Source: Eledone cirrhosa
Taxonomy: Eukaryota
Direction of reading: 5' to 3'
Assembly: GCA_964016885.1 (NCBI GenBank)
Contig: OZ024743.1
Location: 218,364,001 to 218,428,000, forward strand
DNA length: 64,000 nucleotides
Positions 41,185 to 42,681 of this stretch are shown piece by piece. The notes under the pieces are model-generated. The model ran no database searches, was not told the DNA's origin, and was given only the letters and a program-made list of their open reading frames with translations. Made by a program: the position numbers and the translations under genes. Numbering within the stretch: the first letter of the stretch is position 1; each line of letters begins with the position of its first letter.

Positions 41185-42590
41185 CGTTTCCGCTGAACCT
41201 GTGCGTACAACGACTCACGTTCTATGCAAATTGGTCTACCCACTACTAATTTTCATAGAAAAAGCATATAACGATATGTGCTTTTACAATTCTCCAGAGA
41301 AGCCGGAAGATGGGTAAATATTGCTGATGAGATGTAATAACATCGAAACTAGTCCAATATTCCTGTCTGGCCCTCTGGAGAATAGAGGAAATGTGTTTCC
41401 TTGAAAACCCGTATGACTCTAAAACCCGGTCCGTCTGTGTGGTTACATACAGACTAGCTGACACTCACTGTAAAGTGTCTAGTGAAAAGCTGAGTACATG
41501 TACATATGTATACATGTGTGTATTTATATGCATACTAATACTTCCGTATACATATGTAGATGTACACTTTGACTTAATTGTTTAAGCGTCAGTCATACAA
41601 AAGTGAGTTAGAAGCGAAACGAAATTTAATTTCGTTTCGTTATTTGTTTTTATCGTTTCCGCTGAACCGGTGCGTACAACGACTCACGTTCTATGCAAAT
41701 TGGTCTACCCACTACTAATTTTCATAGAAAAAGCATATAACGATATGTGCTTTTACAATTCTCCAGAGAAGCCGGAAGATGGGTAAATATTGCTGATGAG
41801 ATGTAATAACATCGAAACTAGTCCAATATTCCTGTCTGGCCCTCTGGAGAATAGAGGAAATGTGTTTCCTTGAAAACCCGTATGACTCTAAAACCCGGTC
41901 CGTCTGTGTGGTTACATACAGACTAGCTGACACTCACTGTAAAGTGTCTAGTGAAAAGCTGAGTACATGTACATATGTATACATGTGTGTGTATTTATAT
42001 GCATACTAATACTTCCGTATACATATGTAGATGTACACTTTGACTTAATTGTTTAAGCGTCAGTCATACAAAAGTGAGTTAGAAGCGAAACGAAATTTAA
42101 TTTCGTTTCGTTATTTGTTTTTATCGTTTCCGCTGAACCGGTGCGTACGACTCACGTTCTATGCAAATTGGTCTACCCACTACTAATTTTCATAGAAAAA
42201 GCATATAACGATATGTGCTTTTACAATTCTCCAGAGAAGCTGGAAGATGGGTAAATATTGCTGATGAGATGTAATAACATCGAAACTAGTCCAATATTCC
42301 TGTCTGGCCCTCTGGAGAATAGAGGAAATGTGTTTCCTTGAAAACCCGTATGACTCTAAAAGCCGGTCCGTCTGTGTGGTTACATACAGACTAGCTGACA
42401 CTCACTGTAAAGTGTCTAGTGAAAAGCTGAGTACATGTACATATGTATACATGTGTGTATTTATATGCATACTAATACTTCCGTATACATACGTAGATGT
42501 ACACTTTGACTTAATTGTTTAAGCATCAGTCATACAAAAGTGAGTTAAAAGCGAAACGAAATTTAATTTCGTTTCGTTATTTGTTTTTAT
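41185..42590 (+). mobile_element. Retrozyme-like family 2: three complete tandem units of about 469 bp
   Basis: Unit starts at 41185, 41654 and 42125; ends ...TTTTTAT into (TA)n; one hammerhead per unit. Confidence 0.92.
41317..41361 (+). ncRNA. Minimal type I hammerhead ribozyme (family 2); copies at 41786-41830 and 42254-42298
   Basis: AAUAUUG-CUGAUGA-GAUGU-aaua-ACAUC-GAAAC-UA-GUC^CAAUAUU; stem I extendable by attctccagag/ctctggagaat. Confidence 0.92.
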
Positions 42591-42681
42591 ATATATATAC
42601 ATATTTATTTATATATATATATATACATATTTATATATATATATATATATATATACATATTTATTTATATATATACATATT

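Follow-up and report, generated by a model that had tools for sequence, protein, structure and literature searches.

Which machinery mobilises animal retrozymes, and are their circular RNAs the true templates for insertion? Both questions are posed in the literature on retrozymes and Penelope-like elements (PLEs), in the portions of it covered here, and both are raised again by a 64,000-nt stretch (hereafter the window) of the 3.0-Gb genome assembly of Eledone cirrhosa, which holds insertions of two retrozyme families. A preliminary description of the window proposed that such insertions end at one homologous site next to a conserved hairpin, and not at the ribozyme cut. The retrozyme insertions prove to have two fixed internal end sites, each arm using one of them. 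The explanation that we consider likely is that they are copied into (TA)n by a PLE reverse transcriptase–endonuclease, which is probably primed twice on one RNA template, often a circle.

Results

Two families of hammerhead-bearing tandem repeats

The retrozymes consist of 460–480-nt units, and every unit contains a type I hammerhead motif (CTGATGA...GAAAC-TA-GTH) in which stems I and II pair (Table 1). An Rfam scan gave no hammerhead match at gathering score, and the hammerhead assignment rests on motif and stems. Units of family 1 and family 2 align over their whole length, with the sites in register. Their GC content of 0.36–0.38 is below 50%, and the open frames across the arrays are short, or low-complexity TA read-throughs, as expected of non-coding elements. 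A family-1 motif has 5,959 exact matches in the assembly, or ~6,000 units, while 316 matches were found for family 2 from the 39 of 986 candidates that were scored. Like animal non-LTR retrozymes, these elements are dispersed in many copies as dimers to multimers, the longest arms seen having ~15 units. They are non-coding, hammerhead-motif tandem repeats of that class, with predicted self-cleavage.

In every unit of both families, ATGCAAAT followed by TAATTTTCATA is kept ~90–100 nt upstream of the hammerhead core (41228–41235 and 24762–24769 in the window). ATGCAAAT is the octamer motif. Newt satellite 2 has an snRNA-type promoter, and the two elements here are possibly a unit-borne promoter.

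Table 1. Positions of features in the window; a slash marks the end of an arm.
Feature	Position	Strand	Basis
Single-arm family-2 retrozyme array of 3.00 units (469, 471, 466 nt); ends at site B	41185–42590	+	sequence
Type I hammerhead, unit 1: CTGATGA, 5-bp stem II, GAAA, and ACTAGT as palindrome; cut predicted after GTC at 41354	41317–41361	+	sequence
Type I hammerhead, unit 2; predicted cut after 41823	41786–41830	+	motif
Type I hammerhead, unit 3; predicted cut after 42291	42254–42298	+	motif
Site A, family 2 (CTTAATT/ and GTTTA/); read through in window array	42510–42521	+	end mapping of family-2 arms
Hairpin 5' of site B, 11–13 bp stem	42552–42576	+	folding vs shuffles
Site B: TTTTTAT bordering (TA)n, 299 nt past third predicted hammerhead cut	42583–42590	+	sequence
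(TA)n target tract at B end of family-2 array	42591–43063	.	sequence
Minus arm of the family-1 insertion: 2.7 units with three hammerhead motifs; site A end (CTTACAT/ATAT) at 23204	23204–24478	-	sequence, end mapping
Plus arm of the family-1 insertion: 1.5 units with a single hammerhead motif (cut predicted after 24882); site B end	24476–25188	+	sequence, end mapping
Older family-1 subfamily fragment ending at site B, joined to RTE fragment	43967–44205	-	sequence
Second copy of older-subfamily fragment, identical RTE junction	50709–50947	-	sequence
PLE, 1110-codon open frame; stops 24 nt short of own site A, where family-2 array begins	37206–41184	+	RT motifs, linker, endonuclease
9-nt inverted micro-arm of window PLE, ends at PLE site B (ATCGCCGCT/ATAT)	37206–37214	-	sequence
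5'-truncated copy of window PLE, ends at PLE site A (TATAACAAT/ATAT)	26241–27250	-	sequence
RTE-type LINE copies	19409–22489, 27706–30828, 33597–35200, 55660–57404		
Host gene exon matching CCDC97	5336–6130		

Insertions end at two fixed internal sites

In the window, the family-2 array ends in GAAACGAAATTTAATTTCGTTTC-GTTATTTG-TTTTTAT/(TA)n with its last T at 42590, the family-1 plus arm in CAATTTAT/(TA)n at 25188, and the variant copies in CCATTTAT/(TA-rich) at 43967 and 50709. Inside units of both families, this site is directly followed by CGTTT. The two variant copies are the same event and not two independent ends; they were counted once because both have one 5' junction with an RTE fragment. 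The positions of these ends and the CGTTT agree with the preliminary description, as does the finding that ends are neither scattered nor at the ribozyme cut. Its distance of about 300–330 nt from cut to site holds at the lower figure (299–306 nt), the upper one not being reached in the units measured. Its fixed internal end position also stands, but its single site does not: both families have two sites, with A upstream of B by 55–62 nt in family 1 and 69–76 nt in family 2. The family-1 minus arm, which had been said to end elsewhere (23205), ends at site A.

Two further observations concern the retrozyme–RTE junctions. The retrozyme fragment fused to RTE pieces is present twice with different RTE lengths (43967–44559, 50709–51059, and 51591–51898), the adjoining RTE piece being displaced. 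Another retrozyme–RTE fusion occurs at L272 and L274.

Both sites are in regular use across the assembly. In family 2, the 64 arm ends of 36 insertions comprise 32 at B, 28 at A, 4 elsewhere, and none at the cut; this tally covers stretches around the best-scoring matches (39 of 986 candidates) and counts two locally duplicated insertions once each. In family 1, arms mapped by k-mers at 20 loci (L102–L121) and in the window two-arm insertion gave 37 ends, 22 at B and 15 at A, in a sample that was taken in order along contig C1 and requires an intact read-through motif, which favours B. Genome-wide junction patterns of family 1 on the forward strand, which were used since the reverse-strand counts are inflated by multiple registers, number 427 of A type and 462 of B type. 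Site B is thus the commoner end, with A nearly as common. A single family-1 arm (L218) ends at the cut site. Nearly all A and B ends adjoin (TA)n, a microsatellite target in which target duplications are unreadable; one exception is the B end at L045, a two-arm family-2 insertion that lies inside a short TA run just 3' of the hammerhead of a window-PLE-family copy.

Inverted insertions use one site per arm

The main pattern, overlooked in the preliminary description together with site A, is the pairing of the two sites in inverted insertions. The window family-1 insertion (23204–25188) is of this kind, with two arms joined 5'-to-5' over a 3-nt overlap. Complete exact-match lists of family-1 ends in the first 194.7 Mb of contig C1 hold 44 A and 63 B ends, and all 29 divergent pairs within 12 kb are A+B (29/29; binomial p 2e-9 against one half), with 15 A and 34 B ends unpaired. 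The family-1 locus sample, which overlaps this set, agrees (14/14 two-arm insertions A+B). In family 2, 27 of the 36 insertions have two arms, and 23 of these 27 are A+B, with one B+B, three B+other, and no A+A; the terminal unit of the sole B+B insertion belongs to a divergent subfamily. As in PLE-mobilised elements, inverted 5'-truncated arms and partial tandems are therefore found in both families (27/36 in family 2; 14 in the 20 loci plus window in family 1), and the tail is present at one end only in the A+B pairs (29/29 and 23/27).

Autonomous PLEs end in the same way

The PLE next to the family-2 array has RT motifs, a CX4CxxC linker, a GIY-YIG-type endonuclease that is frameshifted near its end, and a minimal hammerhead in its 3' region (40962–40995). 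A Pfam search of its protein gave no match, and the only named match was an Octopus vulgaris hypothetical protein (68% identity), the others being almost all unnamed. RT with C-terminal GIY-YIG, a CX2-5CxxC linker, and a minimal hammerhead place it with the Neptune/Nematis type, by domains and motifs rather than by a tree.

This family, whose end motif has 14,260 matches, ends at A (TATAACAAT/) or at B ~58 nt further, with a minor site 43 nt after A. In a first sample, 6/6 divergent pairs were A+B; in a further sample, both ends of one pair (L192) were long, and the end of another arm (L190) lay elsewhere. An endonuclease search brought up a sister family that has the same A and the same spacing with a different B sequence, and 3/3 of its pairs are A+B. 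In both PLE families, A lies ~24 nt and B ~82 nt into the ORF start. Autonomous PLEs also occur in tandem, as 4,147-nt units with 2 differences between two units. Since retrozyme ends match this end pattern, PLE machinery is the likely copier.

Could the window PLE itself be the helper? The retrozyme units show no similarity to its unit beyond short or low-complexity matches, and the same holds for the sister family among the first 60 matches listed. Thus, the pLTR homology expected of a derivative of a specific PLE was not found with the window PLE and the one sister family compared. A hammerhead-pattern search for a helper PLE returned, among the matches listed, only older retrozyme subfamilies. 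A helper PLE is inferred from the end pattern because no autonomous element similar to the retrozyme units was found. As for the join of the family-2 array to the PLE, via a common AT at 41183–41184, a later insertion at the PLE A end with a small deletion would fit the A+B rule better than co-insertion, because the array ends at B.

RTE was considered as helper and rejected: the window RTE copies have tails of the (ATG)n type and lack inverted arms. In one of these copies, an open frame of 1040 codons includes a PHD finger.

Other PLE-derived or TA-flanked fragments were seen. Five more hammerhead-like motifs in TA-flanked fragments (22928, 25966, 45270, 53102, and 54378) probably mark the termini of further PLE families; those at 53102 and 54378 belong to inverted arms whose ends differ by ~140 nt. 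At L184 (G000:C1:42147500-42152500), four short two-arm PLE end fragments form a tandem with a spacing of ~270–300 nt, and each of them combines an A end with a longer one. A TA-flanked 1.3-unit direct repeat with a period of ~586 nt (48849–49613) contains no hammerhead that a pattern search could find.

Both arms are likely copied from one template

The preliminary description suggested comparing differences between units within and between arrays. Within an insertion they are about half of those between insertions (per kb, 3.8 and 3.5 vs 8.5 in family 2, and 2.2 and 2.0 vs 4.9 in family 1), values reached by 0/200 shuffles, and in both families the cross-arm distance equals the within-arm distance. 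The set comprised 162 of 168 family-2 pieces, a few of which are two merged units with one scored, and 225 family-1 pieces; divergent pieces and loci L220 and L221 were dropped.

Singletons account for the majority of variants (99 in family 2 and 109 in family 1). Another 16 are private to an insertion and fixed in every covering unit, 7 of them across both arms (3 in family 2, 4 in family 1), while 24 are common to some but not all units and 2 are fixed in one arm only. Because both arms carry the same private variants, both arms of an insertion were likely copied from one template.

What kind of template was this? Two loci favour circular monomers. At L064, a 1-nt deletion is present in 10/10 units over both arms and has no other match in the assembly. 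At L212, 5/5 junctions carry a 7-nt deletion that occurs at no other locus and can be aligned so as to abut the predicted cut. Since this deletion removes the ribozyme core, and a genomic unit carrying it is not expected to release a monomer, the simplest reading would be trimming before ligation into a circle. The alternative is slippage between AC repeats followed by homogenisation, the junction deletions also being placeable between short AC repeats; the private variants could also have their donors on a haplotype that is not assembled. Multi-base deletions that touch the cut site were found at two more loci, each in a single junction (L237, L253), and none was seen in one control stretch; a search for junction deletions in family 2 found none.

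Other arrays are not accounted for by a single monomer circle. At L329 and L119, ordered variants are in register on both arms; at L116, a three-unit pattern is repeated and present in both arms; and L065 and L055 are mosaics of two haplotypes. Because of these five loci, and of the 24 partly common and 2 one-arm variants, a template of two or more units is needed for several arrays. Dimer or trimer circles are one possible source of such patterns; linear multimers, template switching, and later conversion are others. A dimer circle would fit L328 (G000:C1:319891000-319900000), where two haplotypes with several linked markers strictly alternate (XY) over 6 units. In one of these haplotypes, the helix III palindrome ACTAGT is replaced by ACATGT, which is likewise palindromic, and mismatched neighbours might fail to form the dimeric ribozyme, giving dimer-length RNA. 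L328 and L329 were found by a search for one variant and are not a random sample. In the window family-2 array, the 3'-most unit differs from the other two at 6 places. Circle and uncleaved multimer, which the preliminary description set out as alternatives, are therefore not an either/or, signatures of both being present.

The same machinery and two sites might nonetheless always use an uncut linear multimer transcribed from a donor array, circles being by-products. The ordered arrays (L119, L329), the repeated pattern of L116, and the mosaics (L065, L055) are what this reading predicts, and hammerhead mutants of an anole PLE did not reduce its insertion in vitro, in the portion of the report covered (PMC11167929). 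We think it unlikely all the same: the L064 and L212 variants sit in every unit without another carrier in the assembly, and arms of up to ~15 units need a growth route. No donor was found for the L065 haplotype, and none for the L116 pattern among 39 matches, with five of the other loci examined.

A second possibility, compatible with either type of template, is that only one site primes, and that the other end comes from endonuclease resolution or second-strand synthesis. It seems improbable, since single-arm family-2 insertions end at A (5) about as often as at B (4), arms of both kinds reach several units, and both sites are RT start sites in vitro in the covered portion of the anole PLE study (PMC11167929). 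The reading with two priming sites on one template, often a circle, accordingly remains the one that we prefer.

If the RT instead copied cut linear monomers and, at each 5' end, jumped to a 3' end, whether of that monomer or of a different one, mosaics such as L065 and L055 and the single-junction deletions L237 and L253 would be accounted for. We give this account little credence. Arm 5' ends do not cluster at the cut, with 2 of 125 within 3 nt, roughly the chance level, and multi-base junction deletions number only 3 loci against ~6,000 family-1 units. Ends up to 25 nt downstream of the cut number 7/61 in family 2 (p 0.04, uncorrected) and 4/64 in family 1. The preliminary description is thus upheld in that priming occurs at fixed internal positions unrelated to the cut and synthesis crosses the cut site repeatedly. 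Three single-arm family-2 insertions (41185 in the window, L060, and L061) start within 6 nt of site B, where synthesis may sometimes halt on return to the bound site.

Growth of arrays after insertion, as satellites derived from single copies by unequal exchange and conversion, is a route suggested in the covered part of a 2026 preprint (10.64898/2026.07.22.740005). Blocks of adjacent units with a common variant (L117, L207, L039) suggest some later exchange. As an explanation of the arrays it is highly implausible, given that inverted arms are as alike as units within one arm, that unit numbers are non-integer with scattered 5' ends and fixed 3' ends, and that 4.1-kb autonomous units are found in near-identical tandem as well.

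What sets the end position

The hairpin that the preliminary description placed beside site B is significant in family 2 only (z -3.9; 1/200 shuffles as good), being weaker in the older variant (z -2.2; 7/200) and in family 1 (z -1.5; 13/200). One stem position, read by eye, varies from C-G in family 2 to U-G in family 1 and U-A in the older subfamily, and hairpin length and A–B distance are both greater in family 2. As a possible signal at site A, a hairpin loop can be drawn, but it was rejected because it folds no better than shuffles.

Main end positions fall on AT or TA, as do sub-sites 3–5 nt apart. In family 1, only 2–3 nt at the main end sites are able to pair with (TA)n, whereas 21 positions in the unit offer at least 5 nt of such pairing and none of these is used as an end. 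Pairing of UUUAU with nicked (TA)n, the determinant put forward earlier, is therefore fine-tuning at most. Because sub-sites 3–5 nt apart all end on AT or TA, it is likely that pairing picks the exact base and that protein binding or spacing picks the region. The earlier proposal in full, with one priming site beside the hairpin set by UUUAU pairing, can point to B being the commoner end and to the AT or TA at main ends, but is scarcely credible: the A ends already refute it as a complete explanation, better matches inside the unit go unused, and PLEs use different B sequences at the same spacing.

Discussion

A proposed model for retrozyme insertion

We propose that retrozyme arrays would be transcribed and cut by their hammerheads, likely as dimers via the palindromic ACTAGT, and that monomers and some dimers would be closed into circles. 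A PLE protein, likely a dimer, would bind the A–B region and nick both (TA)n strands; one cDNA would be primed at A and the other at B, with 2–3 nt of AT/TA pairing choosing the exact base. Each cDNA would then be extended around the template over a number of units that varies (~15 at most among the arms seen). Joining of the two cDNA ends would give an inverted two-arm insertion, and loss of one arm a single arm at A or B.

We also offer, tentatively and with slightly less than even confidence, a more general version. A PLE protein dimer would prime both nicked (TA)n strands on one RNA at sites ~58 nt apart, a geometry that retrozyme circles (monomers and dimers) would mimic while having no sequence in common with the helper. 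Arrays would then be genomic records of rolling-circle reverse transcription, one of them with a mis-ligated ribozyme junction in every unit.

The insertion ends link retrozymes to PLE machinery via mechanism, beyond co-occurrence, and the near-absolute A+B rule limits models of how PLE inverted insertions are assembled. Arrays with private variants make circle and multimer templates distinguishable from genome data alone. For in vitro PLE assays, a 465-nt RNA in which both end sites are mapped would make a small substrate.

Comparison with known systems

The comparisons below refer to the portions of the cited papers that were covered. The closest parallel for the ends is PAc, a Poseidon-type PLE of Anolis carolinensis, in which the genomic tail is bounded by two internal RT start sites that lie past the hammerhead, targets are AT-rich, the hammerhead cut is not the RT start, and a dimer is predicted (PMC11167929). 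Its insertion is independent of hammerhead cleavage, uncut RNA being the dominant substrate in vitro (PMC11167929). The retrozymes share with it the two internal end sites past the hammerhead, the AT-rich targets, and a cut that is not the start. They differ in that PAc is autonomous with a tail of 30–40 nt, whereas the retrozymes are non-coding with a tail of 58–76 nt. The autonomous PLEs described here have both sites just inside the ORF start, as does the anole PLE. Use of one site per arm in inverted insertions is counted here and is not in the PAc main text, in the portion covered (PMC11167929).

Neptune, Nematis, and Naiad PLEs show partial tandems, an inverted 5'-truncated copy, a tail that is often one-ended, and (TA)n targets, and in endonuclease-bearing PLEs the tail has been ascribed to endonuclease resolution (PMC8557442). 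The CX2-5CxxC linker is common to these PLEs and the window PLE (PMC8557442). The architecture described by Craig et al. 2021 concerns autonomous elements and hammerhead-free non-autonomous Chlamys elements, in the part covered; A+B pairing is counted only here (PMC8557442).

For retrozymes, dimer-dependent hammerheads with a palindromic helix III were described and circular templates proposed by Cervera and de la Pena in 2014 (PMC4209133), and the same authors showed retrozyme circular RNAs and named PLEs as candidate helpers in 2020 (PMC7229834). Li, Clavereau and Pollet 2026 linked retrozymes to PLEs by co-occurrence and pLTR homology (bioRxiv 10.64898/2026.07.22.740005); here, the link is the end pattern, no pLTR homology having been found. 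The covered portions of the 2020 and 2026 papers do not contain mapped insertion ends, inverted arms, or a one-sided tail. Our literature search, which covered mainly openly available main texts, found no report of retrozyme end mapping, a counted A+B rule, or variant-based template evidence. In other respects, the elements resemble animal non-LTR retrozymes closely: non-coding, low-GC tandem units with one canonical type I hammerhead per unit and a short palindromic helix III, dispersed as dimers to multimers, with PLEs co-occurring. The units, at 460–480 nt, are slightly above the 150–450 range of the 2020 paper (PMC7229834). The elements belong to a known class, and a one-sided tail with two-site internal priming is a known PLE trait; they are not a new kind of system, but a mechanistically informative one.
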